A stretch of 32,000 nucleotides of DNA from Crocosphaera subtropica ATCC 51142. Lineage in GTDB: Bacteria > Cyanobacteriota > Cyanobacteriia > Cyanobacteriales > Microcystaceae. The notes beneath the pieces are model-generated. The model was not told the DNA's origin and did no database searches. It worked only from the letters and a program-made list of their open reading frames with translations. The position numbers and the translations under genes are program-made. The stretch is taken from the NCBI RefSeq assembly GCF_000017845.1, contig NC_010546.1, positions 3,390,001-3,422,000 of the forward strand. The letters run 5' to 3'. This document shows, in pieces, positions 2,554 through 30,043 of this stretch. The stretch's first letter is position 1, and the number at the start of each line of letters is the position of its first letter.

Positions 2554-2679
2554 GTGAAGTATCAGGTTAAATTTAAACCCAAAGCTATCAAAGAATTAGA
2601 AAAATTGTCGCATCGAGACAAAACTCGAATTATTGATAAAATTTAAGCAATGGCAGATAATTTATAAGGAGATATTAAG
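2554..2679 (+). pseudogene. RelE/ParE-family toxin remnant (two in-frame TAA codons, 3' end removed by the IS)
   Basis: A single frame reads (GTG)KYQVKFKPKAIKELEKLSHRDKTRIIDKI-TAA-AMADNL-TAA-GDIK. This resembles the N-terminal half of RelE/ParE toxins. In-frame stops lie at 2644-2646 and 2665-2667, and the frame ends at the IS left inverted repeat (2680). Confidence 0.55.
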
Positions 2680-2700
2680 CAGGGTAAGCTCATCTAAAAT
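2680..2700. repeat. IS terminal inverted repeat (left)
   Basis: Perfect 21-nt reverse-complement match to 4019-4039. Confidence 0.9.
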
Positions 2701-3910
2701 CCGCTTGACAGAAGGAATTGAGAACAGTCATCATATAGTTGTTGTTCATAGCAGCTTGCTTCATTTTCTGGCGAAGACTACGTTTAAATGTTTTTTCTTG
2801 ATGGAGAACATTAAGAGCCAATCGTCTTAGAAGAGCAAAGTTCTGTGGACTATATTCTGACCGAATACGGCATTGATCTTCAGAAAAAGTGACATCGAGT
2901 GTCCAATGAAGGTTATTCTCAATGCTCCAATGGGTGCGGATCGCATGGCAAAGGAATTGGGCATTGGGAGGTAAAGAGGTCAGATAAAACTGAATATCGT
3001 GGGTAGTCTTGTTCCACAAGTGACGGATGCGTTCGACTACGACAATAGTTTGCAGTCCATGCCATTGTTGTTGCTGGTAAAGCTCTCCCATAGCTGCTAC
3101 TGGTATAGCCCAAACGTATCGTTTCTCGGTGCGGTGGTGGCCCTTGGTTACACTTTTGTAGTAATCATGTTCAATGCCATCCCAGCCATTGTTTTGGGTA
3201 TCAGTAAACCATTGCTTGACTTGAGAAAATAAAGTAGGATGGTTAGCTTTGAGAGTAACAATGTAGTCAGCTTTTTGCCGACAAATTTGTTGGATAATGC
3301 TGGTTTGAGTTCCCATTGCATCAATGGTAATGATCGAGCCTGTAATGTCTAATAGTTCGAGTAAGGCAGGAATGGCCGTAATTTCATTGGAGTAGTTTTC
3401 AACTTTGACTTGTCCTAACACCAGACTCTGCTGGGATGCCCACGCTGTGACCGTATGTAAAGCGCACTGTCCGGCGTTGCGATCGTAAGAACCCCTTAAT
3501 GTTTTGCCATCGATGGGGATAATTTCTCCTTGAATTGAATTCATTATAGATTGAACCCATTTTTGTAGGCATTTTTGCAGCGATTCTGGATCAATTCTCT
3601 CAAAAACTCTTCTAAATGTGTCATCACTCGGGATTCCGTGAGGGAGTTCTAGAAACTCTGATAACCACTCCTGTTTTGCGATACCATAGTTCTCCATATC
3701 TTCCCAACCTTGGGACCCTGCAATGACTGCCAATATAGCGATCGCCAATACATCTTTAAGGAGGTGTTTTTTGCTTCTTTGTACTCTAGGATCTTCTATT
3801 TCTTTGACATAGCCTAATAAATTGTTTTGGATTTCATCAATAGATGCTATATTTCCCTTTTCCTTTTTTTTCTTACTAGATTGTTTTTGGTCTGCAAACC
3901 CCTTGGCCAT
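2690..3910 (-). CDS. ISAs1-family (H-repeat-associated type) DDE transposase
   Basis: The N-terminal DPRVQRSKKHLLKDVLAIAILAVIAGSQGWEDMENYG, the IDAMGTQ motif and the C-terminal HWSIENNLHWTLDVTFSEDQCRIR are hallmark motifs of ISAs1-family transposases. Confidence 0.85.
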   Translation of the reverse strand: MAKGFADQKQSSKKKKEKGNIASIDEIQNNLLGYVKEIEDPRVQRSKKHLLKDVLAIAILAVIAGSQGWEDMENYGIAKQEWLSEFLELPHGIPSDDTFRRVFERIDPESLQKCLQKWVQSIMNSIQGEIIPIDGKTLRGSYDRNAGQCALHTVTAWASQQSLVLGQVKVENYSNEITAIPALLELLDITGSIITIDAMGTQTSIIQQICRQKADYIVTLKANHPTLFSQVKQWFTDTQNNGWDGIEHDYYKSVTKGHHRTEKRYVWAIPVAAMGELYQQQQWHGLQTIVVVERIRHLWNKTTHDIQFYLTSLPPNAQFLCHAIRTHWSIENNLHWTLDVTFSEDQCRIRSEYSPQNFALLRRLALNVLHQEKTFKRSLRQKMKQAAMNNNYMMTVLNSFCQADFR

Positions 3911-4018
3911 GTTCTGATTCCATAATTACGAAAGTCCTAATTGTACTTTGTTTTTTTATTTTAAGTCCCTTTTTGCCTCACCTAGACTTTACTTTCTTAG
4001 TCAAGTACATTTTATACC

Positions 4019-4039
4019 ATTTTAGATGAGCTTACCCTG
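4019..4039. repeat. IS terminal inverted repeat (right)
   Basis: Perfect 21-nt reverse-complement match to 2680-2700. Confidence 0.9.
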
Positions 4040-5650
4040 GTTGCTGGTGCATATGATCAACATAAATACGAAATTATTGATGGACAACAAAGAATTGCTA
4101 CATTTACTTTATTAGTTGCTTGTTTAATTAAGTCTTATAAAACTTTAGAATTAGATACTAAAAAATCAGGTGATAATAAGAATTTGAAAATCATACAGAA
4201 ACGACATCAAGAATTATTTAGTAGATTTATTGAATTTGAACAAGAAATCCAAAGGCCATTCTCGTCTGTAGAAGTCTTGACACTATCAAAAGCAGATCAT
4301 TCTTTTTATAGTAATTTAATTCGTGATCTTCATCCTGAACCTTCAAGAGATTCACATAAAAAAATGTTATCTGCATATAAAAAAATGAATGAAACATTAA
4401 TATCAATTATGGAGCGATGTACTAATATTGAAGATAAAATAGATGATCTTGAAGTTATTCAAAAAATTTTAGATAATGACTTTACAGTATTACACATGGT
4501 CACAGATAAAAAAGAAGATGCTTTTAGATTATTTCAAGTGATAAATGATAGAGGGACAAATCTTACTGATGGAGATTTATTAAGAGCTAAAACTTTAGAA
4601 CTTTTGGAGCAATTTTATCATGATCAAAGAATTGTTGAAGAAATATGGGATTATATTTTAGCTGACTCTCCTTCAGATACCAGCGATTATTTGAATTGGA
4701 TTTATGATTCTTTTCAAGGAAAGCGACCCAAACAAAATGCTGTGTTTGATATGTTTCTTGATAAATTTTTTCCTGAACATAACAAAACTGATTTACAGGA
4801 AGAAGATGCAGAAAAAATTAGAAAAATGATGCAAGATATAAAAGAATATATTATTAGATGTAGAAAGTTAGTACAAGGACAATGGTTATATCCAGATAAG
4901 CAACCACTAACTGCTTGGGATAGAACTCGTTTAAATCTTGTCATAGTTGAACTTGGTCATACGCTATCCATTCCATTATTGCTTTCAGCATCCCAATTAG
5001 ACGATAAAAAATTTTCAGAAATCGTTCAAATGGTAGAGAGAACATTTTTTAGATATAAATTAGTTTGTAATGAGCATATAACTCCTTTAAAAAATATTTA
5101 TTCACAAGAAGCTGTTGCTATACGTAAAAATGCTCAATCTTATAATCCTGAAACTCTTAGAGAAAAATTAAATAATTTAATCCAATCAAAAACATCTGAC
5201 TCAATATTTAAGAATAATTTAAAAAATCTTAAATATCAAGAAACTGGTACGAGTAATAAACCTCTGAAATATTTTTTGATGTCTATTGAATATTATTACC
5301 AATGGTATAGCAATGGGTCAACGGGCAAGCCTCTATGTCTTGATAAAAGTAGAGTTTATGATTTTGCTGGTACATCTATAGAACATATCTATCCTCGAAA
5401 TCCGAAACAGACTGATAAGGATGATCATATTGAACCTATAAAAAATTCACTGGGTAATCTTACAATTATGGATCCTCAACAAAATGGAATAGGTGATAAT
5501 GAACCATTTTTGAGAAAAAAGACACTTTATCAACAGTCATCTGTTTTCTTAAATAAAGAAATAGGGAATAAACCTCATTGGACACTTGAAGAAATAAGCA
5601 ATCATGAAGACTTCCTGATAGATGCTGCTGTTAAAATATTCCGTCCATAA
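4040..5650 (+). pseudogene. GmrSD-like type IV restriction enzyme (DUF262 + DUF1524), 5'-truncated by the IS
   Basis: The frame is open back into the IS right end, and native sequence begins at 4040. The DGQQR motif (4079-4093, ...YEIIDGQQRIATFTLL) is present, but the upstream part of DUF262 is missing. The C-terminal SIEHIYPRNP...NSLGNLTIMDPQQN (EHIYP at 5381-5395) fits the DUF1524 His-Me finger. The TTG at 4184 in the ORF track is not a credible native start. Confidence 0.7.
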
Positions 5651-5889: not shown

Positions 5890-5966
5890 TAAGTTTATCT
5901 TCAACTATGACTTAAGTGCGATCGCTTATAATAAACCTATCCCCTAAAATAAGTATCAGGAGGAAA

Positions 5967-6383
5967 ATGCCAGCAAAAGACATTTATCATGATGCGGTTA
6001 AAAATGCTTTAATAAAAGATGATTGGACGATTACAGCCGACCCTTATAGAATAAAATATAAAGATGCTGAATTATTTGCTGATTTAGCAGCAGAAAAACC
6101 TATTGCTGCTGAACGCAGTGGACATAAAATAGTTGTTGAAATCAAAAGCTTTTTAAGTCCTTCTCCTATGAGAGATTTTGAAATTGCTTTAGGTCAATAT
6201 ATTTTATATCGAAACTTAATCAATCTTACTGAACCAGAATACCAAATTTATTTAGCTATTAAAGATAGTATTTATGTAAACTTGTTTGAAAGAGATTCTA
6301 TCAAAGACATTACCAAAATAAATAAATTACTTTTAATTGTTGTTGATATGGAACAAGAGGAAATTTTACAATGGATAAACTAG
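5967..6383 (+). CDS. xisH: XisH family protein (fdxN element excision controlling factor-like)
   Basis: The product starts MPAKDIYHDAVKNALIKDDWTITADPYRIKY...VVEIKSF, a typical XisH N-terminus. I chose the ATG at 5967, preceded by AGGAGGA (5958-5964), rather than the GTG at 5916. Confidence 0.85.
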   Translation: MPAKDIYHDAVKNALIKDDWTITADPYRIKYKDAELFADLAAEKPIAAERSGHKIVVEIKSFLSPSPMRDFEIALGQYILYRNLINLTEPEYQIYLAIKDSIYVNLFERDSIKDITKINKLLLIVVDMEQEEILQWIN

Positions 6384-6712
6384 AAAAGTATCGCCAATCT
6401 ATCAAAAAAATTTTAACAGAATACCATGAATGGGTTTCAGGTTCATCCAATTTAACCAGAGAAAGCTGTCTTATTTTTGATGAAGTACATGACCAATATA
6501 TGTGGCTATTTATGGGATGGGAACGAAAGAAAAAAATTAGAAATATTCATGTTCATATTCGTATAAAAAATGACAAAATCCACATAGAAGAAGATTGGAC
6601 AGAGGAAGGTATCGCTAATGAGTTATTAAGAGAAGGTGTCCCCAAAGAAGATATCGTTTTAGCTTTTTATGATCCCGAAACTCGTAAATATACAGACTTT
6701 GCTACAGCTTAA
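6371..6712 (+). CDS. xisI: XisI family protein
   Basis: MDKLEKYRQSIKKILTEYHEW...HIRIKNDKIHIEEDWTEEGIANELLREGVPKEDIVLAF matches XisI. The ORF overlaps xisH by 13 nt, the usual paired arrangement. Confidence 0.85.
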   Translation: MDKLEKYRQSIKKILTEYHEWVSGSSNLTRESCLIFDEVHDQYMWLFMGWERKKKIRNIHVHIRIKNDKIHIEEDWTEEGIANELLREGVPKEDIVLAFYDPETRKYTDFATA

Positions 6713-13888: not shown

Positions 13889-14359
13889 TTATATTAAGGA
13901 TGGATACCAATCATCGTCTAATATTTGTTCAATTGTCAATGGGCATTTTAAGGGTAAATTAAAAGATAAATTAGCACTTTCAGCTTTTAAGTTTACCTGT
14001 TTCAAAGCTTTATTATAATTCTTGTCAAGATTATTTTCAAAATGCTGATCATAATTTTTAGAATCTAAAAAATCAGATAAATCATTTCTAAAATTATTGA
14101 TCTCAATCTTCCAACCAGAGAGATAAAAGTCTCGATTAATAGTCCAATAAGCATATAATAATAAATGAATCAATAATTGACGAGTCAGACTGTTAATTGC
14201 TCTTTTATCACTAACTCCCAATGATTCTATTTCCTCTTGTAAGTTACTCCAATCTAAAGCACTAACATCTTTATTTTTGAGTGCGATCACTTGTTGATCA
14301 ACCCATTCTCCAAAGTCTAATTCATATAAGGTTTTATTGTCTTTTTCTACACTTCTCAT
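13889..14359 (-). CDS. DUF29 domain protein
   Basis: LYELDFGEWVDQQVIALKNKDVSALDWSNLQEEIESLGVSDKRAINSLTRQLLIHLLLYAYW fits the DUF29 pattern that is common in cyanobacteria. Confidence 0.8.
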   Translation of the reverse strand: MRSVEKDNKTLYELDFGEWVDQQVIALKNKDVSALDWSNLQEEIESLGVSDKRAINSLTRQLLIHLLLYAYWTINRDFYLSGWKIEINNFRNDLSDFLDSKNYDQHFENNLDKNYNKALKQVNLKAESANLSFNLPLKCPLTIEQILDDDWYPSLI

Positions 14360-14633: not shown

Positions 14634-17600
14634 ATGGTTCATGTTAAGCGCATCGAATTATCTCATTTTAAATCCTTTGGTGGCACCACTGCCATTCCTT
14701 TTTTGCCTGGGTTTACTGTCGTATCAGGTCCCAATGGATCGGGTAAATCTAATATACTCGATGCTTTGTTATTTTGCTTGGGGTTGGCTACCTCTAAGGG
14801 AATGCGGGCCGAACGATTACCGGATTTAATTAATCATAATCATAGCAATAATCGTAAGACTCAGGAGGCTTATGTTTCTGTTACTTTCGATGTGTCTGAT
14901 CTAACGGACCTAGAAGAATTTAGTCGAGATAATCCTCCTGTTACTAAGATAGCATTAACCGAAGAAAATAACAATAATGCTAAGGAAAATCAGACAGAAG
15001 AAACCCACATAGAAAATAGTTTAATTACTAGCAGTGAGTGGACGGTTACTCGACGGTTACGAGTGACAAAAGGAGGAAGTTATTCCTCAACTTATTATAT
15101 TAATGAGCAACCTTGTAATGTTAGTCAACTTCATGAACAATTAAACCGTTTAAGAATTTATCCTGAAGGCTATAATGTGGTGTTGCAAGGGGATGTAACC
15201 CGTATTATTAGTATGAATGGGAAAGAAAGAAGAAATATTATTGATGAATTAGCTGGTGTTGCAGAATTTGATCGCAAAATAGAAAAAACAAAAGAAACCT
15301 TAGAAGAAGTTAGGGAAAGAGAAGAACGCTGTCAAATTATTGAAACTGAGTTAAAACGGTCTTTAGAACGGTTAGCGGCTGATAAAATTAAAGCAGAAAA
15401 ATATAAAAAATTAAAACAACAAATCCAAGAAAAACAAGGATGGGAAACGGTCTTAAGTTGGAAGTTATTACAGCAAAAAATCTCTCGCCTACAAACTCAA
15501 ATTACTACAGGAGAACAGGAAGAACAAAAATTAAATCAAGGAATTAATGAACTGGCTGAAAAAATAAAAGAAAATACGGCTAAACTCGAAGACTTAAACC
15601 GTCAGGTAAAAGCATTAGGAGAAGATGAACAGTTAACCGTTGCATCTCAGTTAGCGACACAAAAAGCACAACGTAATCAACGTCAACAAAAACAACAAGA
15701 GTTAGACAATCTTATTCAACAAACAGAACAAGAAATAAAAGAAACTGAAATAATTATCACCCAACAAAAACAAAGCTTATCTCAACTTACCGAAGATAGT
15801 AATAGTCTGCAACAAGAAACTTTACCCCTCTTAAAAGAACAAAGAGATCGCACTTATCACACCCTAGAAATGGTCAGAAAACAAGCAGCAGCCATTGCAG
15901 AAGCATCAGACGCGTGGGTACAAGAACAAGCAAAATTAAGCCGTCAAATTTCTACATTACAAGATACCTTAAACCCTCAGCTAACCCAACAGGCACAGCT
16001 AACAGAACGTTATCAACAGTTACAAAATAATATTAGTGATGAAACACAGCAATTAGAAAATATTGAAGTAGAATTAAACGACCAACAGCAAGAATCTAAG
16101 GGTCTATCCATTCCCCATGAAGAAAAAATACAACAATTAGCCCAACAACTAGCCACCGCAGAACAAGATAAAAGTATCCTCGAAGAAACCCAAATCCGTC
16201 TCGATAAAGAATACCGACAAAAACAACGACAATTAGATCGCTTAGAAGCTTCTCAACAAGCACAACAAGAAGCCCAAGGAACCTATGCCACCCAACTTAT
16301 TTTAAACTCTGATTTACCTGGAGTTTGCGGTTTGGTAGCACAATTAGGACAGGTTAAACCGACGTATCAATTAGCTCTAGAAATTGCTGCCGGATCACGA
16401 TTAGGTTATGTTGTAGTTGAAGATGATACGATCGCTGCTGCAGGAATTAAGCTGTTAAAACAAGGAAAAGCAGGACGAGCAACCTTTTTACCGTTAACAA
16501 AAATTAGACCCTATCGTGGACAAACCGATAATAGTTTACGCCATGCACAAGGGTTTATTGATTTAGCGGTTAATTTAGTGCTTTGTCGCCCTGAACATGA
16601 AAAAATTTTTTCCTACGTTTTTGGGAATACCGTTGTGTTTGAAACCTTAAATGATGCCAGACACCACTTAGGAAAACAACGCATTGTTACCTTAGAGGGA
16701 GACTTATTAGAAACCAGTGGGGCGATGACAGGAGGAAGTCGTCCTAAACGTTCATCAATTCGTTTTGGAACCTTAGTGCAAGGAGAATCTCACGAAATTA
16801 AATCCTTGAAACAAAGATTAACTGATTTAGAAGAGTTACTATCTCGTAACTTAGAAAAATTACAACAAAAATCTGAGCAAATTAAACAATTATCCCACGA
16901 GTTAACCGAAGCAAGACAAAGCGGAAGAGAACAACAATTAAAACGGGAACAGTTAGACAAAGAAATACAACGATTAACCACACAACAACAAAAGTTAAGT
17001 CTACAGTTATCTCGTCATAAACAAGAAGCAGAAACCTTAGACAGTCAATTAAAAATTATGGCTGCTGAAATTCCCCCCTTAACCACAGAATTACAACAAA
17101 AACAAGACAGACTAAGAAAATTAGAAGAATCTCATACTCATAGCGAATGGCAAGAAATTCAAACCCTAATCAAAAGCCAAGAAACCCAACTCCAAGAAAG
17201 AGAAAACGAACTGCGTCAAGGAGAGAATAAAAGACAAGAAATTGAGCGTCAACTGTCTTCTTTAGAGGAAAAAATCAAAGAAAATCAAGACAAAATAAAG
17301 GCACAAAGAGAGCAAATTGTAAAGTTAAATAATGATAAGATTGAGATCGCAGAACAGCTAGAAACTCTTAATGATAAAATTAGTAATTTAGAAAGATTAT
17401 TAGAAGAATTAACCCAAAAATTAGGAGAAACCAAAAAAGAACGGGACAACACAGAAGAACAGTTAAAAACAGTACAAAAAAATCATCAACAAAAAATCTG
17501 GAACTTAGAGAAATTACAAACCACACAACAAGAAAGAAAAGAAACCTTAATAACCTTACAAGAAGAACAAGAAAGCCAACAAGAGGAATTACCTGACCCC

Positions 17601-18299
17601 TTACCCGAAGTCCCCTTACTCTCAGAAATTGATGAAAATACCACAGATTTAACCCCTCATATTGAACAACTACAACAAGATATTCGTAACGGACAAAAAT
17701 GCTTAGAAGCCATGGAACCCGTTAATATGTTGGCCTTAGAAGAACATCAAAAAACCCAAGAAAGATTAAACGAACTCACCGAAAAATTGACTACCATTCA
17801 AGGAGAAAGAACCGAATTATTATTAAGAATCGAAAACTTTACCACCTTAAGATTTAGGTCTTTTAAAGAATCTTTTGATGCGGTTAATGAGAACTTTAAA
17901 AACATATTTGAAACCCTTTCTCAAGGGGATGGATACTTACAGTTAGAAAACGAAGAAGACCCCTTTCAAGGGGGATTAAATCTCGTTGCACATCCTAAAG
18001 GAAAGCCCGTACAACGGTTAAGTTCTATGTCAGGGGGAGAAAAATCCTTAACCGCTTTAAGCTTTATTTTTGCCCTACAAAGATATCGTCCTTCTCCTTT
18101 TTACGCCTTTGATGAAGTAGATATGTTTTTAGATGGAGCTAATGTAGAAAGACTCTCAAAAATGATTCAACAACAAGCACAACAAGCACAGTTTATTGTC
18201 GTTAGTTTACGTCGTCCTATGATTGAAGCCTCCCAAAGAACTATCGGTGTAACCCAAGCTAGAGGGGCTTATACTCAGGTTTTGGGCATTAAAATATAA
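14634..18299 (+). CDS. smc: chromosome segregation protein SMC
   Basis: The 1221-aa product has Walker A GPNGSGKSN, long Q/E/K-rich coiled coils, a hinge (GVCGLVAQLG...AGRATFLPL), the signature LSSMSGGEKSLTALSF and Walker B FYAFDEVDMFLD. Confidence 0.95.
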   Translation: MVHVKRIELSHFKSFGGTTAIPFLPGFTVVSGPNGSGKSNILDALLFCLGLATSKGMRAERLPDLINHNHSNNRKTQEAYVSVTFDVSDLTDLEEFSRDNPPVTKIALTEENNNNAKENQTEETHIENSLITSSEWTVTRRLRVTKGGSYSSTYYINEQPCNVSQLHEQLNRLRIYPEGYNVVLQGDVTRIISMNGKERRNIIDELAGVAEFDRKIEKTKETLEEVREREERCQIIETELKRSLERLAADKIKAEKYKKLKQQIQEKQGWETVLSWKLLQQKISRLQTQITTGEQEEQKLNQGINELAEKIKENTAKLEDLNRQVKALGEDEQLTVASQLATQKAQRNQRQQKQQELDNLIQQTEQEIKETEIIITQQKQSLSQLTEDSNSLQQETLPLLKEQRDRTYHTLEMVRKQAAAIAEASDAWVQEQAKLSRQISTLQDTLNPQLTQQAQLTERYQQLQNNISDETQQLENIEVELNDQQQESKGLSIPHEEKIQQLAQQLATAEQDKSILEETQIRLDKEYRQKQRQLDRLEASQQAQQEAQGTYATQLILNSDLPGVCGLVAQLGQVKPTYQLALEIAAGSRLGYVVVEDDTIAAAGIKLLKQGKAGRATFLPLTKIRPYRGQTDNSLRHAQGFIDLAVNLVLCRPEHEKIFSYVFGNTVVFETLNDARHHLGKQRIVTLEGDLLETSGAMTGGSRPKRSSIRFGTLVQGESHEIKSLKQRLTDLEELLSRNLEKLQQKSEQIKQLSHELTEARQSGREQQLKREQLDKEIQRLTTQQQKLSLQLSRHKQEAETLDSQLKIMAAEIPPLTTELQQKQDRLRKLEESHTHSEWQEIQTLIKSQETQLQERENELRQGENKRQEIERQLSSLEEKIKENQDKIKAQREQIVKLNNDKIEIAEQLETLNDKISNLERLLEELTQKLGETKKERDNTEEQLKTVQKNHQQKIWNLEKLQTTQQERKETLITLQEEQESQQEELPDPLPEVPLLSEIDENTTDLTPHIEQLQQDIRNGQKCLEAMEPVNMLALEEHQKTQERLNELTEKLTTIQGERTELLLRIENFTTLRFRSFKESFDAVNENFKNIFETLSQGDGYLQLENEEDPFQGGLNLVAHPKGKPVQRLSSMSGGEKSLTALSFIFALQRYRPSPFYAFDEVDMFLDGANVERLSKMIQQQAQQAQFIVVSLRRPMIEASQRTIGVTQARGAYTQVLGIKI

Positions 18300-21785: not shown

Positions 21786-22406
21786 TTACTTTAATTGTGC
21801 TACTTGAAAAATGGTATCAGTCGTTAATTCCAGTTCAGGAAAGATACTTGATTTTAAGCGATCGCCTTTAACATACTTTTCCATCTGATATTCCCCTTCA
21901 ATTAACTGACAGATGGTAATCGTTGGTTGCTTGGGTTTACCAATATGACGAACGGCCCCTACACCCCGATAATCAACAATCCAATATTCAATAATTCCCA
22001 TGGCTTCATACTCAACAAATTTATGGCCATAATCATCTCGCCAGTTCATACTAACCACTTCAATGACCAAGGGAACCGTCTGACTATTTTGAATCACTGA
22101 TAATTTTTCCCACAGAGGTTCATTTTTGAGATGTTCTCGATTAATAACGGCTACATCGGGGAGGTATCCAGAACGAGGGGCAAGGGGTTTGATTAGACAG
22201 TTTTTAGGAATAGAATAGGGCAGATTTTGTTTACGAATTTCTAAGTTTAATTCTGCAATCAAAAAACCACTAATGTCTTCATGAGAACCGGTGGGAAGCA
22301 TTTCAACTATTACACCTTCAATTAATTCATAGGTTTTTTCATTTTCTGGATACCATTCTAGAAACTCCTCAAAACTTATCGGTTGAATTTGTAGGTTTGT
22401 AACCAT
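21786..22406 (-). CDS. Uma2-family (DUF820) restriction-endonuclease-fold protein
   Basis: EFLEWYPENEKTYELIEGVIVEM, YLPDVAVI and PLVIEVVSMNW form a PD-(D/E)xK-like arrangement typical of Uma2. Confidence 0.8.
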   Translation of the reverse strand: MVTNLQIQPISFEEFLEWYPENEKTYELIEGVIVEMLPTGSHEDISGFLIAELNLEIRKQNLPYSIPKNCLIKPLAPRSGYLPDVAVINREHLKNEPLWEKLSVIQNSQTVPLVIEVVSMNWRDDYGHKFVEYEAMGIIEYWIVDYRGVGAVRHIGKPKQPTITICQLIEGEYQMEKYVKGDRLKSSIFPELELTTDTIFQVAQLK

Positions 22407-23473: not shown

Positions 23474-25504
23474 TTATGTTGTCTCCTGAGACTTTAATTC
23501 ATAGCCTTCTAAGATTAAATTATTTTCTTTTAAACAGTCTAACCATCCTAACAACCGGTTGACTTTACGATAGTCATCTAATAATCCTAATTCTTGTTCT
23601 TTTTCCGTTAACTGTTTAAAGGTTTCATGCAAAGGGTAATCAGGAGACACTAAACTATCTTTATAATGTAAAATGGGGGGGTTATCATCCTCTGCATAAT
23701 CAGAATAATTAACTCGTAAATTGCTTAATTGAATTTGCATCCGACTATGAAGACGGGGATGAGCATTATTATCAAAATCGGGATAAAATAGATAAGTAAT
23801 CTTAGGAATACGCCAAGAAAATTGGATAACATTGGCTTCTTCTAATCGTCCCACCGTACGACTGGCGCAACCTTCATATAAACGCAATAAAGGTTCTAAA
23901 GTTTCTAAAACACTAATATGAACGAGGAGAGAATTTTTCAGTTTTCTGCCAATGGTTTGCTTTTGACACAGTTGGGCAATAATTTCTAAATTTCCGACTT
24001 GGTATAACATAGCATCAGCCATGATACAAGCACTATTATAACTGCCAAATAATGACTTAATATCTTGTTTAACTTCTGGGGATAATTCCCGCATTTTTGG
24101 ACGGCGATCAAATTGACTTAAGGCCAAATATAATAATAAATCTTGACGACGTTTTTCTGTAATCATATCCCAATCATCTTCTTGAGTAACTTGTAAAATA
24201 ACCTTAAATGCTTGGCGGAAACTTCTAAATTCTTCTTTTAATGCTACTTCATTTTTTAGTTCTCCTTTAGCTGGTAATCGTCCCCGTTCGGTGTAAAATT
24301 CCATTAAGGGTTGTAGCAAGTATTCATAGTCTTCAAATCGTCTAACTTTGGTGATTAATCTGGGAGTTTTTGCCCTAGAATGGAAGCGAGAGGCACGGAA
24401 TTTTTGCGACTCTAGCTCATCTCGAAACACTAAATAAATACCTAATCCGATGGGTATTGAATCAACCTCTAAAACTTGATCAATATAAAATTTTAGTTCT
24501 TCTTGTTCATAATACTTTTGAAAGGTATTACGATTAGTAATAATCCCATCTCCGTAGGCAATAACACCTCTATCTCGATCATCGATTAAAACCTGTGCAG
24601 AAACAATTAAAACTTTATTAGTTAATTCCCACGCATTTAGTAATGCTTCCCGTCTCTCTTTGATATCTTCAATGACATTAATAACATACCCTAAATTAAC
24701 AATATCGGCGATCGCTTTTTGATTATCGGGACAATAATAAGGGTCCCATCCTTGACTTTTATACCCTGCTTCGGCAATTCTTTCCACATCCCCCCCGTAA
24801 CCGCATCCGTAGTCAAAAAAAGTGGTTTCTTCCTCGAATAATAATAAGTCTAATGCTAAACGAACGGGACGAGATAAGGTATTTCTAACAATAGCGGCTT
24901 TATGTCTTTCTATTTGAATATTAACGGTTTCTTTAGGAAAAATAGGACAATGACACGCCAAATAATGCCCCTCGAAAATAATCCGTTTACGATTTAATCT
25001 TTTTTCCCATTCCTGTTTAGTTCCGATAGGTGCATTTAATGTTAATAATTCTAATGCTTCCTCCATCTTAGTTAAATGGGCAAACATTTCATAATGAGCA
25101 TAATCAGGGGTAATAAAAGTTTCTTTCCTATGAAGAATAGGCGGGTTTCTTTTCTTTTTATAGTCCCAATAACTAACTTGTTCTGTATCCAGATTAATAA
25201 CAATACTTAACGTTAATGCAGGATGAGGATCACTATCAAATTGGGGATAAAATAAATAAGAAATAATGGGCTTATCTGTATTGAATTTTATAATCGTTGC
25301 CCCTTCAATATCTTCAGTTAGTCTGGCTTTTTTTTCGTATTCTTGTAATCTTATGTCAAGACAATTAATGGCACTAACATGAACATATAAAGCCGTGGGT
25401 AACTGTTTACCGATAGAACTTTTTTTACAACAATAAATAATTTCGCTAAAATAATCAGTGGTGAGGAACATAATAGTTTTAAATTTATTCGGATAAATCT
25501 CCAA
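23474..25504 (-). CDS. 676-aa SAM-dependent methyltransferase with duplicated flanking domains; core resembles the 'DNA phosphorothioation-associated putative methyltransferase' family (TIGR04096, from memory)
   Basis: Class-I MTase motif I is FFDYGCGYGGD (24788-24820), with ADIVNLGYVINVIED downstream. A helical region follows (RRQDLLLYLALSQFDRRPK...DIKSLFGSYN). The N-terminal (aa about 18-182) and C-terminal (aa about 504-672) domains are clearly paralogous. An alternative start is the ATG at 25471. Confidence 0.6.
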   Translation of the reverse strand: MEIYPNKFKTIMFLTTDYFSEIIYCCKKSSIGKQLPTALYVHVSAINCLDIRLQEYEKKARLTEDIEGATIIKFNTDKPIISYLFYPQFDSDPHPALTLSIVINLDTEQVSYWDYKKKRNPPILHRKETFITPDYAHYEMFAHLTKMEEALELLTLNAPIGTKQEWEKRLNRKRIIFEGHYLACHCPIFPKETVNIQIERHKAAIVRNTLSRPVRLALDLLLFEEETTFFDYGCGYGGDVERIAEAGYKSQGWDPYYCPDNQKAIADIVNLGYVINVIEDIKERREALLNAWELTNKVLIVSAQVLIDDRDRGVIAYGDGIITNRNTFQKYYEQEELKFYIDQVLEVDSIPIGLGIYLVFRDELESQKFRASRFHSRAKTPRLITKVRRFEDYEYLLQPLMEFYTERGRLPAKGELKNEVALKEEFRSFRQAFKVILQVTQEDDWDMITEKRRQDLLLYLALSQFDRRPKMRELSPEVKQDIKSLFGSYNSACIMADAMLYQVGNLEIIAQLCQKQTIGRKLKNSLLVHISVLETLEPLLRLYEGCASRTVGRLEEANVIQFSWRIPKITYLFYPDFDNNAHPRLHSRMQIQLSNLRVNYSDYAEDDNPPILHYKDSLVSPDYPLHETFKQLTEKEQELGLLDDYRKVNRLLGWLDCLKENNLILEGYELKSQETT

Positions 25505-26156
25505 ACTGTTGACGATATTTTTCTAACATCGATTCCATTTCAGACACCTTTCGTTTTTCCTCTTCTAACTCGGCTTCTTTTTCTTTCAAAGCGGCTGCCA
25601 ACTCTTCAGGAATTAATAATTTTTTTCCTGTATCTTCCCGATAAAAACCAATTAATTGACCTTCAACTTTCAACTGTAGCTGTAACGGTTTACTCCGATT
25701 ATCTTCAATGATTTCATAAACATTATTTCTTAAACGATAACCTATCAATTTTTCGTTAATCCATTCCCCTTTAGGATCAAATAACCAATATTCTTGAACT
25801 CCTAATTGTTCATATAATGTCTTTTTAAATTCTTGATCTTGACTTTTTGTCCCTGGAGAAGTCATCTCAAAAATTACTTGAGGAACCTCTTTTTCTTCCC
25901 ATATTTTATAATTATCCCGTCCCCCCGGTTTCACATTAAAGATTACCATAACATCAGGGGCAACTCGCATTCTAGGAAGTCCTTGACTATAATACACAAA
26001 TTGATTCGCTAATACAGTCGCTTGTTGTCCCGATAAATACTGTTTTAGCACTTCTAACGTGGTTAAAATAGCATATAAATGAATATAAGTTTCTGCCGCA
26101 GGTTCACCGTCTGAACTGGGATAAATAATATCAGTTTTAGAAACTGCTTCTAACAT
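25485..26156 (-). CDS. Uma2-family (DUF820) nuclease-fold protein with a C-terminal coiled-coil tail
   Basis: YPSSDGEPAAET, APDVMVIF and PQVIFEMTSPGT are Uma2 motifs, followed by an E/K-rich helical tail. The 3' end overlaps the downstream methyltransferase ORF by 20 nt. Confidence 0.8.
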   Translation of the reverse strand: MLEAVSKTDIIYPSSDGEPAAETYIHLYAILTTLEVLKQYLSGQQATVLANQFVYYSQGLPRMRVAPDVMVIFNVKPGGRDNYKIWEEKEVPQVIFEMTSPGTKSQDQEFKKTLYEQLGVQEYWLFDPKGEWINEKLIGYRLRNNVYEIIEDNRSKPLQLQLKVEGQLIGFYREDTGKKLLIPEELAAALKEKEAELEEEKRKVSEMESMLEKYRQQFGDLSE

Positions 26157-26587: not shown

Positions 26588-26615
26588 GTAGGGGTAATTC
26601 ATTAATTATCTCTAC
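26588..26615 (+). terminator. hairpin between convergent genes (palindromic-element type)
   Basis: GTAGGGGTAATT-catt-AATTATCTCTAC forms a 12-bp stem with two G-U pairs when read as plus-strand RNA. It starts 9 nt after the stop of the 94-aa ORF. There is no clear U-tract. Confidence 0.3.
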
Positions 26616-26734
26616 CAACTTCTATGATTTCTGTGTATTCAAACTCATTAGACATCTCCAAGAATCCATAACCCAGTTACAGCAATGAAAACAGGCAGAT
26701 TAAACTTGAAGTCAAAATTAGCCTTCAGAACGAA

Positions 26735-27779
26735 TTAATAAGGGGTTGAAGGAATTAACTCTAATTTGGACATAAAACTATGGCTCATTATAACGTCAAT
26801 TACCTCTCCAGATTGGGAGGATTCTATTATTTTCAAAATCAAGGAACTAATTCTCAACCGAACTAATCCACAAACGGTTAACAAAACCGATTTATATCGA
26901 CTCTTATGTAAGCGAAATCTTTCTTGAACTACTTTAAATACTTTGACAACTCGAATTAAATGCTCAACAAAAATCCGATTAGATGATAAAGCTTTATTTT
27001 CTTTTATTTGAGCTTCAGTTAATTCTCTTTTCTTAGTTTTTTTATGCGGAGTGATAATTTGAGTCTCTCCAATGTAGGCTTTATCAGCACTAAAAGTTTG
27101 GTTTATCTTGAATTTATTTAAAGTTTGCCGACAGATGTTAATGTCACTTGTCGGCCCAGGTTTTCCAATTACTACATCAATAATATCTTCAGCTTTTGGC
27201 AAGACAACGAATTGACTTTTTAAAGTATGTCTTTTCTGCTTACCCTGTCTCTTGGTGCGCGTTCCCTAGGCGATTACGAATCGCCGGGGTCGCACCGCAA
27301 TAATATTTTTTTTGTTCTTGATAATCTGAAGGTCTTTCAATAGCCTGTTCTGCGCTGTCTACAATCAATTCATAATCAGTTAACATTTCAAGAACTATTT
27401 CTTTTTCTTCTTGAAACTTTTTTATTTGTTCTAATAAACTTGGTGGTAACTCTCCTTCAAAAAGTGTTTGCCAATAAGTAAAAATATTATGAGCCGTTGA
27501 CTCACTTACTTGAAAAAGTAGTCCTAAGAGTTGAAAACTTATATTATGTCTTAAATAAACTAACGTTAGAACAATTTGTTCTTCTTCTGCTAATAAAGAT
27601 GGACTTCCCGCACCAGGTTGATTAATTCTAATTTTTGTTTTTTCGTTCTCTTCTTTTTTTTTCTGATGAAGAAGCTTCCCTAGAGCAATCAATTGTTCCA
27701 ATTGATTGTCATCAATTCCTAATAATCTTTTGGTTTGTTTAGGATATTTTTTTAGATAGCTCCAAGTGTAAGTTTCCAT
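26735..27779 (-). pseudogene. IS5-family DDE_Tnp_4 transposase split by a 52-bp insertion
   Basis: The N-terminal part (27297-27779) has an HTH_Tnp_4-like LTLVYLRHNISFQLLGLLFQVSESTAHNIF and IVDSAEQAIERP. The C-terminal part has GKQKRHTLKSQFVV..., ADKAYIG and RIFVEHLI. Removing 27245-27296 joins ...QKKYYC to GKQKRHTLK... as one 330-aa frame. Confidence 0.75.
27245..27296. other. 52-bp GC-rich three-tier hairpin insert inside the transposase gene
   Basis: GGTGCG (27254-59) pairs with CGCACC (27291-96), CCC (27264-66) with GGG (27286-88), and GGCGATT (27269-75) with AATCGCC (27279-85). I count 33 of 52 bases as G/C, within much more A+T-rich flanks. The length is not a multiple of 3, so it causes a frameshift. 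Confidence 0.6.
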
Positions 27780-27806
27780 TCTTTTTTGAACTAATTATTC
27801 ATTTTA

Positions 27807-29873
27807 TTATACTATATTTCTTGATTTTATTAAATTATGGAGATGTCTATTAGGACTTTGTTTAACTAAAGGATAATTAACGCCATTCAAAAAAATATTA
27901 TCTTGTTGACAGTCAGGTTTCGGGGAATAATAGACTAAAACATATTCTTTTCCAATATAATTATTGGTTTCTGCTTGGACTTCACCCCGCCATTGTGTTT
28001 TTGTTACTAAAATAATTAATTGATTGGCTAATTTTGGGATTGATTTTGCCACTTGTCTACGATAAATCTCATCTAAACTACCAAAGGGAGAGTCCATCAC
28101 AACGGGAAAGGTACTACTATCGGGTCCCATTAAGGTATTTTTATGACTCCAGTTTCTCACACTATCAATAATTCCCCCAATAAACGAAAGGCTTAAAATT
28201 TGATTTTCCCCTGTTGACGCTGCTACAGGAACAGCTATTCCTGATGTATTTTCAATCAAGTTTAACTCATAATTTTGGGTTAATCGAGGAATATAAGGTG
28301 TAAAAGAAATATCACAAAAAATAGCTTGAACTCGTTTTTCTAAAGAGAGACGAAATTGTTTTTCTAGACGAATTCTAACTTCAATGAGTCGTTCTCTTGA
28401 TTCTTTGGCTGCCTCACTTCTCCGTTTAGCTAAGATTTGCTTTTCTTCTTTTAGTTTCTGTTTAGCAATGTCTTTATCTAAGGTTTCTATCTGTTTTTGT
28501 AAAGTGGTTAATTGTTGTTGAATTCCCCCTTGTTCTAATTGTAATTCCCGAATTATTTGATTAATTTTATCTAAATTTTCTTGTAGGTTTCTGATATCAG
28601 CATCAGGATAATTGCGAAACTTTTGATTAATGTCATCTAGTTCCACTTCAACCCTAGATAATTCTAATCGAGATTGTTCAAGTTTGGCTTGTTTTTCATC
28701 TACATTTTCCCAAAAAGTAATCACTTTTTCTTCCATCTCATTCACTTGAGATTCTAAGCGAATAGCTGATTCTTCTATGGCTGCTATTCCTGCTTTATCC
28801 ATCCATTGTTTAACTTGTTCGTAATAATGATTTCCCTCGATTAATTCTTGGCCACAAATACAGCTTTTACGATTTAATAATTGTTGCACAAATTGTTGTT
28901 TAATTCCACTGGGTAACTCTCCCCGTTGACGTAAATTAGTGATAATTGTGTTAAATTTAGGGATAACATTACCCAAAAATATTAAGTAACCTTGATTAGA
29001 AATAAACTGTTTAATTTGTCGTTTTAATTCTCTGATTTCCTTTCTTAAGTTTGATTCTTGTTTTTCGAGTTTAATTTTCAGATTTTTTAATTGTTCGTTA
29101 CTGCTTAAAGTGATCAAATTTTCTGAAATTTCTTTTTGCTGTAACTCTTGAGAGTTTATAGTTTCTATGATATTTTTCTTTTTATTTTGTAACTTTTCTT
29201 GCTCTTGTTCTAATTTTATTTTATCTTTAATCTTTTTTTTGATGTTAACATCTCCAATAATTTTTAGTTCTTCTTCTAAGGTTTTTTCTGCTTTTTTTAG
29301 ATGTTCAATAGAACGATCTAACACTTTTACACCTAACAGTTCTTTTGTATCTTCAGCAATACGACTTTTATCATTACTACGAAAAATATGGTCAATATGT
29401 TCTCCATCAAAAAAGAAATATTGATGTAAACTTTTGGGTAAAATACGGTTAATAATATCATCAGGTTGTTGCGAGGGAGGATACCAGCGACCATCTTCTT
29501 CCGCCACCAACATATAAAATTTATTTTCGCTGTATTGAATCGTACCATTTTTATCTAAACAAGCATAACATTTTCGTTTAACTTGATAGTGTTTATGTTC
29601 ATGTTCAAAATAAATTTCCACCCAACACTCCACTGATGTTCCTATATCAGCTTGCATAATGGCACGCTTATTAATTAAGAGTTCAGGAGAGGTAAAAGCA
29701 GCCGTAAATTCTTCATATAACACCCAGGTAAAAGCATTTAATAAGGTGGTTTTTCCAGACCCGTTATTACCGTGAATAATAGTGGTATTTTCCTTACCAC
29801 AGGCTAAGCTAATTTCTGGAGTTTGACCATAAAACTGTCTAAAATTACATAATTTAATCGATAATAATTTCAT
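27807..29873 (-). CDS. DndD-like SMC/Rad50-type ABC ATPase (AAA_23-like); last ~17 codons are IS-derived
   Basis: Walker A is GNNGSGKTT (29745-29771). YFFFDGEHI is at aa 152-160. A K/E/Q-rich coiled-coil region of about 330 aa has a central SCICGQEL (aa 337-344). The signature STGENQILSLSF (aa 553-564) and Walker B FPVVMDSPFGSLDEIYR (aa 589-605) follow. The frame runs into the IS right end at about 27860. Confidence 0.8.
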   Translation of the reverse strand: MKLLSIKLCNFRQFYGQTPEISLACGKENTTIIHGNNGSGKTTLLNAFTWVLYEEFTAAFTSPELLINKRAIMQADIGTSVECWVEIYFEHEHKHYQVKRKCYACLDKNGTIQYSENKFYMLVAEEDGRWYPPSQQPDDIINRILPKSLHQYFFFDGEHIDHIFRSNDKSRIAEDTKELLGVKVLDRSIEHLKKAEKTLEEELKIIGDVNIKKKIKDKIKLEQEQEKLQNKKKNIIETINSQELQQKEISENLITLSSNEQLKNLKIKLEKQESNLRKEIRELKRQIKQFISNQGYLIFLGNVIPKFNTIITNLRQRGELPSGIKQQFVQQLLNRKSCICGQELIEGNHYYEQVKQWMDKAGIAAIEESAIRLESQVNEMEEKVITFWENVDEKQAKLEQSRLELSRVEVELDDINQKFRNYPDADIRNLQENLDKINQIIRELQLEQGGIQQQLTTLQKQIETLDKDIAKQKLKEEKQILAKRRSEAAKESRERLIEVRIRLEKQFRLSLEKRVQAIFCDISFTPYIPRLTQNYELNLIENTSGIAVPVAASTGENQILSLSFIGGIIDSVRNWSHKNTLMGPDSSTFPVVMDSPFGSLDEIYRRQVAKSIPKLANQLIILVTKTQWRGEVQAETNNYIGKEYVLVYYSPKPDCQQDNIFLNGVNYPLVKQSPNRHLHNLIKSRNIV

Positions 29874-30043
29874 TGAATCACTTCTTTAATAATTTGAACG
29901 ATATCATCATTAATATTTCGAGGCGATCGCAAAGATAACTTACTTTTTTCTAAGGATAAAACTCTTTCGATAATCTGATAGATTTCAGGGGGTGCGGTGG
30001 TAATGGGTTCTTGAACTTGACTAACATTAACTTCTTCATTCAT
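29870..30043 (-). CDS. unlisted 57-aa ORF translationally coupled to the DndD-like ATPase
   Basis: The product reads MNEEVNVSQVQEPITTAPPEIYQIIERVLSLEKSKLSLRSPRNINDDIVQIIKEVIQ. Its TGA overlaps the ATPase ATG as ATGA (29870-29873). It is too short for the supplied ORF track, and I do not recognise a family. Confidence 0.4.
   Translation of the reverse strand: MNEEVNVSQVQEPITTAPPEIYQIIERVLSLEKSKLSLRSPRNINDDIVQIIKEVIQ

Follow-up and report, generated by a model that had tools for sequence, protein, structure and literature searches.

What is the role of a DndD-like coiled-coil ATPase whose gene is joined to one very small gene and stands apart from the usual dnd cluster? The question is raised by a 32-kb stretch of the chromosome of Crocosphaera subtropica ATCC 51142 (formerly Cyanothece), referred to here as the window. 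On its minus strand an open reading frame (ORF) of 57 amino acids (29870..30043) precedes an ATPase ORF annotated as 688 amino acids (27807..29873), the product of which is 100% identical to ACB52657.1, and the stop codon of the small ORF overlaps the ATPase ATG by 4 nucleotides (caATGAaa). An earlier note on this DNA had described the two ORFs and their overlap, all of which are present where it placed them; the small ORF, which it considered unlisted, is annotated in GenBank as ACB52658.1. The evidence reviewed below makes it probable, though by no means certain, that the locus represents the core, PbeB-PbeC, of an anti-invader system of the Pbe, or ‘CxC ABC ATPase’, kind, and that it has the reduced form usual in unicellular cyanobacteria.

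The ATPase itself can be placed securely as a PbeC-type, CxC-clade coiled-coil ATP-binding cassette (ABC) ATPase, belonging to the sister clade of DndD. When the Pfam, NCBIfam (TIGR) and PADLOC profile libraries were searched, it matched the PADLOC PbeC model PDLC02753 with 986.8 bits (E 1.1e-297), residues 1–648 aligning with positions 1–648 of the 648 in the profile. The best 25 PADLOC matches are to PbeC or DndD models only, with 21 further PbeC models beside PDLC02753. The name PbeC belongs to the ATPase encoded in PbeABCD, an anti-virus system linked to phosphorothioates and known as phosphorothioate-blocked DNA exclusion (Xiong et al., 2019; PMC6459918), and this ATPase has been equated with the ‘CxC ABC ATPase’ (Rakesh, Aravind and Krishnan, 2024; PMC10853773). 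The CxC clade, originally described by Krishnan et al. (2020) and cited here through the later paper, is the sister of DndD and is defined by a C-x-C zinc hook atop a coiled coil of ~400 residues (PMC10853773). The hook-like C-I-C-G to which the earlier note drew attention is therefore exactly the motif that defines this clade.

In an alignment of 15 ATPase homologues with 59–100% identity, C338, I339, C340 and G341 are invariant, and the Walker A motif GNNGSGKTT (residues 35–43), FFFDGE (153–158), the signature STGENQ (553–558) and the Walker B motif VVMDSPFGSLD (591–601) are invariant or nearly so; each had been correctly located in the earlier note. The native part of the protein, with its invariant CxC, comprises codons 1–675 (27849..29873, minus strand). 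In a model made with AlphaFold2 (AF2) from the alignment, helices 182–316 and 364–521 flank a non-helical apex, residues 317–363, which holds C338 and C340. A coiled coil of ~300–340 residues, with the C-x-C at its predicted apex, interrupts the ABC head in this model; the mean predicted local distance difference test (pLDDT) score is 63.8, with confidence in the coiled coil only and values below 50 in the C-terminal head. A sequence search of the PDB with the ATPase gave no match, nor did the Pfam SMC_hinge model match it.

The DndD family model TIGR03185 aligns with the ATPase from end to end, but the score of 139.1 bits lies well under the cut-off of 245.85, and the description of a DndD layout in the earlier note is imprecise. 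Models of Rad50 (45.9 bits, cut-off 700), SbcC (34.7, cut-off 478.5) and SMC (26.6, cut-off 729.4) gave weak, N-terminal matches, this group as a whole scoring 27–46 bits against cut-offs of 478–1087. The best matches are not housekeeping RecN, SbcC or RecF proteins, in agreement with the view that the protein is not of the RecN/RecF type. Lamassu/ABC-3C, RecN, RecF and SbcC identities were all rejected on these scores.

The small ORF was followed through 80 cyanobacterial loci obtained by a scan of GTDB species genomes. By tblastn, all 80 have a homologue of the small protein, with 52–98% identity, directly upstream of the ATPase, and 64 keep the 4-nucleotide ATGA overlap. Within Crocosphaera the ratio of nonsynonymous to synonymous substitution rates (dN/dS) in its gene is 0.03–0.15, and third codon positions vary most. 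From this conservation, these ratios and this bias it follows that the small ORF is a real gene under purifying selection, and the expectation that the mini-ORF would be conserved among homologues has been borne out.

An invariant QEPIT..A motif in the small protein is followed by two predicted helices, and AF2 (pLDDT 79) places helices at residues 19–38 and 44–56 and no strand. Judged from sequence and model, it appears to be a conserved two-helix partner, the gene for which is presumably translationally coupled to that of the ATPase. It has no match in Pfam, NCBIfam or PADLOC, and its profile, compared with the PDB, found designed proteins only, with E ~0.01, which were taken as spurious. 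The possibility of a cryptic DndE or ribbon-helix-helix relative was rejected; hhalign gave a probability of 0.2% against PbeD, and the AF2 model has two helices and no strand. Where PbeA is present the small ORF sits between PbeA and the ATPase, that is, in the position of PbeB, and it is by this position that it is putatively identified as PbeB, or ‘SP’. On a Pseudanabaena plasmid the order is PbeA, a 57-residue ORF and the ATPase, with dnd_assoc_4 further on. A plasmid of the alphaproteobacterium Pontibrevibacter carries PbeA, a 63-residue ORF with a 4-nucleotide overlap, the ATPase, dnd_assoc_4 and DGQHR.

When the ORFs of all 80 loci were clustered, only the small protein and the ATPase proved to be universal. 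Other recurrent neighbors are PbeA (TIGR04095, E 2e-201), PbeD (TIGR04062, E 4e-60), DGQHR, DndB, DndC, Uma2 and MazG-like proteins. Among the 46 loci with at least 4 kb of upstream and at least 6 kb of downstream flank, the bare pair accounts for 20, PbeA without PbeD for 6, and PbeA together with PbeD for 20, of which 16 also have dnd genes; the homologues are thus not found almost always in complete clusters. The non-housekeeping character of the matches, the many bare pairs and the universal presence of the mini-ORF together indicate that a recurrent two-gene unit is real. The earlier suggestion of an undescribed two-gene module is therefore right as to the coupled unit but not as to its novelty, since the family is known (PMC6459918; PMC10853773).

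A neighbor-joining tree of the ATPases has two clades that group roughly by taxon. In the filamentous clade (38 loci) PbeD is nearby in 24 of 31, PbeA in 31 of 34, and dnd genes are found in 20. The window falls in the other, mostly unicellular clade (42 loci), which includes Crocosphaera, Microcystis, Pleurocapsa, Prochloron, Spirulina and others; here PbeD is missing from all 32 loci that have 3 kb or more of downstream sequence, PbeA is present in 6 of 37, and dnd genes in none. The order PbeA, small ORF with 4-nucleotide overlap, ATPase and dnd_assoc_4 occurs in 24 filamentous loci and two plasmids, and the full arrangement of PbeA-PbeB-PbeC-(Uma2)-PbeD with dnd genes occurs in filamentous cyanobacteria. 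The proposal that the pair is the surviving piece of a larger system is to that extent partly right, but only partly. Of the 3,902 matches to a PbeD profile, the 120 that were listed belong without exception to filamentous taxa.

PbeA is a superfamily 2 helicase (TIGR04095), usually fused to an HKD nuclease and encoded upstream of PbeB (PMC6459918; PMC10853773). The cyanobacterial PbeA is helicase-only, covering positions ~241–681 of the 682 in the PADLOC PbeA model, and the N-terminal HKD region is missing. In about 21 loci the ATPase gene is directly followed by one for Uma2. In filamentous loci Uma2 (at about +2056 nucleotides) comes between PbeC and PbeD, in many cases with a MazG-like gene after it (loci L037, L048–L051, L058, L059, L061, L066, L071–L073, L075, L077, L079 and others in the sample). 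In these cyanobacterial Pbe systems, the PbeA of which lacks the HKD region, Uma2 may have come to serve as the nuclease.

Two other observations were made in this survey. Six loci (L021, L031, L034, L044, L062 and L069) encode proteins with DEP domains (PF00610, E 1e-23 to 5e-49) directly downstream of the bare pair, about +80 to +1400 nucleotides past the ATPase stop and on the same strand. These loci come from several sub-lineages of the unicellular clade; one of the proteins has two DEP domains and one is fused to SnoaL. We know of no link between DEP proteins and these ATPases. One locus labeled ‘Actinomycetota bacterium MAG69’ (L039, JBLNEP010000168.1) has the order PbeA, small ORF, ATPase, and its ATPase nests among those of filamentous cyanobacteria; it is probably a mis-binned cyanobacterial contig.

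Within the window, the partners of the pair were sought with hidden Markov models (HMMs) built from cyanobacterial PbeA, PbeD (24 sequences), DGQHR, DndB and DndC, none of which gave a match in a six-frame translation of the 32 kb. The earlier statement that nothing in the window resembles the dnd genes did not survive. The ORF at 23474..25504 (minus strand) encodes a TIGR04096 DNA phosphorothioation-associated putative methyltransferase (849.6 bits, cut-off 150, E 6e-256), 2.3 kb downstream of the native ATPase stop, or 3.5 kb with an insertion sequence (IS) counted. Preceding it is a gene for a putative endonuclease of the Uma2 family, of PD-(D/E)xK type (25485..26156, minus strand; Pfam Uma2 E 1.7e-17; PADLOC candidate family PDC-S03). 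The RefSeq start of the methyltransferase (665 residues) would lie at about 25471, 13 nucleotides past the Uma2 stop, and with so short a gap the two genes look like one operon. The same arrangement is repeated in four other Crocosphaera loci (L001, L002, L005 and L006), and the TIGR04096 gene is also found beside dnd/pbe clusters in two loci (L049 and L076). The methyltransferase has the same domain of ~130 residues at both termini (...PKITYLFYPDFD..HP.L...NPPILH.K...), flanking a core, FDYGCGYGGD, that binds S-adenosylmethionine.

The supplement of Xiong et al. (2019; PMC6459918) lists dndC at 200,722–202,134 and dndD at 202,432–204,432 of the ATCC 51142 chromosome, NC_010546.1, and records PbeA as ‘non-existing’. 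The C. chwakensis assembly has dndCD on one contig and the pair on another. From these contigs and the dndC-free window we infer that dndCD is distant from the pair. Given dndCD at another locus, ATCC 51142 probably makes phosphorothioate DNA from an unlinked set of genes. The claim that the ATPase has no dnd partners therefore stands for PbeA, PbeD, dndB and dndC in the window, but not for the methyltransferase downstream or for the genome as a whole.

Between the pair and the Uma2-methyltransferase genes is a gene for a Lys-rich protein of 94 amino acids (ACB52654.1; 26295..26579, plus strand), convergent with the ATPase and carried with the pair in Crocosphaera and one more lineage. The protein has three copies of DRKK(R/K)I(L/M)xH(L/V)xxS with a variable Pro/Thr linker, and no Pfam match above cut-off and none in PADLOC. 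In 7 Crocosphaera loci, as in ‘Unicellular cyanobacterium SU2’ (L011), its gene comes immediately 3′ of that for the ATPase. The 94-residue protein could be a third, lineage-specific component, but whether it belongs to the module is uncertain. On the other side of the pair, 436 bp separate the small ORF from divergent, unrelated genes. Comparison within Crocosphaera shows that nucleotide homology begins exactly at the start codon of the small ORF and continues downstream; in L004, synteny with the pair ends just after the 94-residue gene. The GC content is 31.7% for the gene pair and 35.5% for the window. The A+T-richness noticed earlier is thus present but slight, and is in part to be expected from the K/E-rich codons of the coiled coil. 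A scan of the entire window with Rfam gave no family, and promoter-like sites in the scan were not more frequent than in shuffled sequence.

The resemblance of the locus to PbeABCD lies in the ATPase, which fits the PbeC model over its full length and has CxC at the apex of its coiled coil, in the ORF of ~57–66 residues directly upstream with a 4-nucleotide overlap, as expected for PbeB/SP, in the dnd-associated genes near the pair, and in the orthologues that form part of complete PbeA-B-C-D clusters in filamentous species and on plasmids. It differs in that PbeA and PbeD are absent in cis, in the window and across the whole clade (PbeA in 6 of 37 loci), in that the small protein is well conserved and predicted to be helical, whereas the published component is ‘rapidly evolving, mostly disordered’ (PMC10853773), and in the cyanobacterial PbeA, which is without the N-terminal HKD nuclease region. 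With DndD the ATPase shares the ABC head, a coiled-coil insert of similar length and alignment along the whole protein; it departs from DndD in its TIGR03185 score, its CxC hook and its position away from dndB, dndC and dndE, in a genome with its own dndCD elsewhere. Rad50 and SbcC likewise have an ABC head, an antiparallel coiled coil and an apical cysteine hook, and this shared architecture suggests that the ATPase dimerizes via a shared metal ion. The ATPase differs from them in having a CxC instead of a CxxC hook, a much shorter coiled coil, no Mre11/SbcD nuclease partner and model scores far under the cut-offs. In Lamassu (LmuB), ABC-3C and other conflict systems with SMC-like ATPases, too, a coiled-coil ABC ATPase serves as the sensor or scaffold and the effectors vary, but no LmuB, JetC, AriA or GajA model is among the best 25 PADLOC matches, and the partner genes are different.

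If the locus is the core of a Pbe-type system, the small protein would be made in step with the ATPase and would bind it, acting as a regulatory subunit or an adaptor. The ATPase would dimerize through the zinc hook and its ATP-engaged heads and so might scan or loop DNA. This complex would cooperate with variable effector or marking genes. Candidate co-workers here are the adjacent Uma2 nuclease and TIGR04096 methyltransferase, the unlinked dndCD system, or both. The purpose would be to tell the cell’s own DNA apart from invading DNA.

Several points weigh against this reading. To our knowledge there has been no experiment on any cyanobacterial member. No PADLOC model, including any PbeB model in that library, matches the small protein, and its comparison with the alphaproteobacterial 63-residue protein at the PbeB position gave an hhalign E of 0.042 over 29 columns, which does no more than hint at homology between the two. 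The adjacency of the pair and the Uma2-methyltransferase genes is confined to closely related genomes, and with the convergent 94-residue gene between them they do not form one operon. No relatives were found on IMG/VR viral contigs, and the flanks in Microcystis are housekeeping genes, less island-like than typical defense loci. In Halopenitus none of the four Pbe genes can be dispensed with (PMC6459918), and two of the four, PbeA and PbeD, are not in the window. The operonic linkage of the CxC ATPase to its clade-2 DndE cognate (PbeD, TIGR04062) has been described as universal (PMC10853773). The neighborhoods of the unicellular clade do not fit this pairing, which leaves partners that act in trans or a pair that works alone. 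With PbeD in 0 of 32 loci, ‘Pbe system’ may be the wrong functional frame for the clade.

A second explanation is that this copy is a decaying remnant, the non-functional leftover of a once larger pbe/dnd island eroded by IS elements. We consider this possible but rather doubtful. That an IS strikes the locus had been noted before, and the element does adjoin the 3′ end of the ATPase. It is an IS5-family element of ~1.2 kb (roughly 26652..27848, minus strand), delimited by imperfect inverted repeats at 26649–26671 and 27827–27849, by transposase domains and by comparison with the empty site at the C. chwakensis locus, L001. Its ORFs match HTH_Tnp_4 and DDE_Tnp_4 (Pfam), with an NF033581 (IS5) match under its cut-off. 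The element entered after ATPase codon 675, and relative to L001 the duplicated bases fall within CTAAT. As a result, the last 14 native codons are cut off and the annotated protein ends in 13 IS-encoded residues (RHLHNLIKSRNIV*; 27807..27848, minus strand, the homology with L001 ending at 27849). The orphaned native end, EFEYTEIIEVGRDN* (26602..26646, minus strand), can be recognized from its translation and its match to L001, and fits the FEYTEII C-terminus conserved in all aligned homologues. On the preferred reading as well, with this conserved tail stripped off, the ATPase of ATCC 51142 is likely to be impaired, and the copy has probably been weakened or recently inactivated.

A second, possibly dnd-related gene has suffered a similar truncation, which also favors a remnant. 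This encodes a GmrSD-type (DUF262/DUF1524) restriction protein (4184–5650, plus strand), which matches PADLOC ‘Orf5’ with E 1e-187 from profile position 119 onward only. Its relation to dnd is a suspicion, prompted solely by the place of the ‘Orf5’ model numbers in PADLOC; if it is correct, two dnd-related defense genes of the window have each been hit by an IS. The gene lies in a stretch of 29–30% GC. The IS that removed its 5′ end (2677–4042) has inverted repeats at 2677–2700 and 4019–4042, 96% complementary, and a DDE_Tnp_1 transposase at 2690–3910. The lack of PbeA and PbeD in the window can be added to these arguments. However, their absence is the ancestral state of the whole clade and not a recent loss. 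The ATPase ORF is intact over 675 codons, shows no excess of non-synonymous change, and has a dN/dS of 0.11–0.13 relative to its relatives, not above the 0.07–0.13 of intact pairs. Moreover, the IS next to it is already degenerate, so that some time may have passed since it was inserted, yet the ORF is still open. Its transposase is in two ORFs (27240–27779 and 26735–27202, minus strand), the frame being broken by a GC-rich insertion of ~55 nucleotides (window 27245–27300, minus strand; ...QKKYYC, GATPAIRNRLGNAHQETG*, then GKQKRHTLK...). The inserted bases fold into a nested hairpin, GGTGCG..GGCGATTCGTAATCGCC..CGCACC (-23.9 kcal/mol, z = -2.25). They are present in a single copy in the window, and may be a miniature mobile or palindromic element.

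A third explanation accepts that the pair is functional but not that it is a restriction system of the Pbe type. In unicellular cyanobacteria it would be an autonomous, largely vertically inherited two-gene module for DNA surveillance, repair or chromosome handling, working without PbeA, PbeD or dnd genes. We regard this as quite unlikely. In its favor, the small protein and the ATPase are the sole universal genes, clade 2 lacks PbeD and nearby dnd genes and has PbeA in few loci, and the downstream neighbors there are heterogeneous and often housekeeping genes. The ATPase dN/dS in bare pairs equals that in complete systems, the ATPase tree follows taxonomy roughly, and none of these genes was found on viral contigs. 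It is opposed by the presence of the orthologous pair inside complete PbeABCD and dnd clusters in filamentous cyanobacteria and on plasmids, and by the dndCD genes elsewhere in the genome, with which unlinked partnership is possible. Within Crocosphaera, synteny breaks exactly at the upstream edge of the module, as expected of accessory DNA. The related conclusion, that in the unicellular clade the pair is a self-sufficient, long-maintained DNA-surveillance module with neither a DndE-type reader nor a PbeA motor, is likewise unlikely in our estimation, if a little less so.

That the ATPase is a canonical DndD of phosphorothioate modification, or a housekeeping SbcC/Rad50/RecN/SMC repair ATPase, as the JGI annotation ‘DNA sulfur modification protein DndD’, the UniRef annotation ‘Nuclease SbcCD subunit C’ and the weak N-terminal matches to Rad50, SbcC and SMC models would have it, is effectively refuted by the scores given above, by the CxC hook, which DndD does not have (PMC10853773), by the missing SMC hinge in a window that encodes a bona fide SMC with a hinge (domain match, 14634–18299), by the lack of an adjacent DndC, DndE or SbcD, and by the separate dndD of 2,001 nucleotides listed elsewhere in the ATCC 51142 genome.

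The window contains a few further genes of interest, namely an XisH/XisI pair (5916–6712, plus strand), a second Uma2 gene (21786–22406, minus strand; PADLOC PDC-S03, E 5e-91) and a DUF29 gene (13889–14359, minus strand). They are scattered among housekeeping genes, those for aconitase B, HisB, SMC, RodZ, PdxJ and Ycf54. XisH/XisI, Uma2 and DUF29 are small families abundant in cyanobacterial genomes.

Much of what surrounds the preferred identification, the PbeB-PbeC core of a Pbe-type system, is already published, namely the family of the ATPase gene, its hook motif, the small ORF upstream and the connection with dnd, and a PADLOC model fits the ATPase almost perfectly. In the literature searched, no description was found of the bare PbeB-PbeC state conserved across a whole cyanobacterial clade, or of a well-conserved helical small protein in the unicellular clade, and both are apparently new. 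The ATPase gene is labeled variously ‘DndD’, ‘SbcC’ or ‘AAA family ATPase’, and the bare pair will escape any defense finder for which PbeA and PbeD are required. For ATCC 51142 itself the case is an ordinary one, a known defense-type pair damaged by an IS. The wider interest concerns the family, since Pbe/CxC-ABC systems are poorly understood and whether they cut DNA is disputed. If half of the cyanobacterial loci keep PbeB and PbeC alone under purifying selection, the pair would be the minimal functional unit and, as such, a simple two-protein target for structural and biochemical work. Should the pair prove to be autonomous, this would contradict the published obligate pairing of the CxC ATPase with DndE, and the small protein, not DndE, would be its obligate partner.

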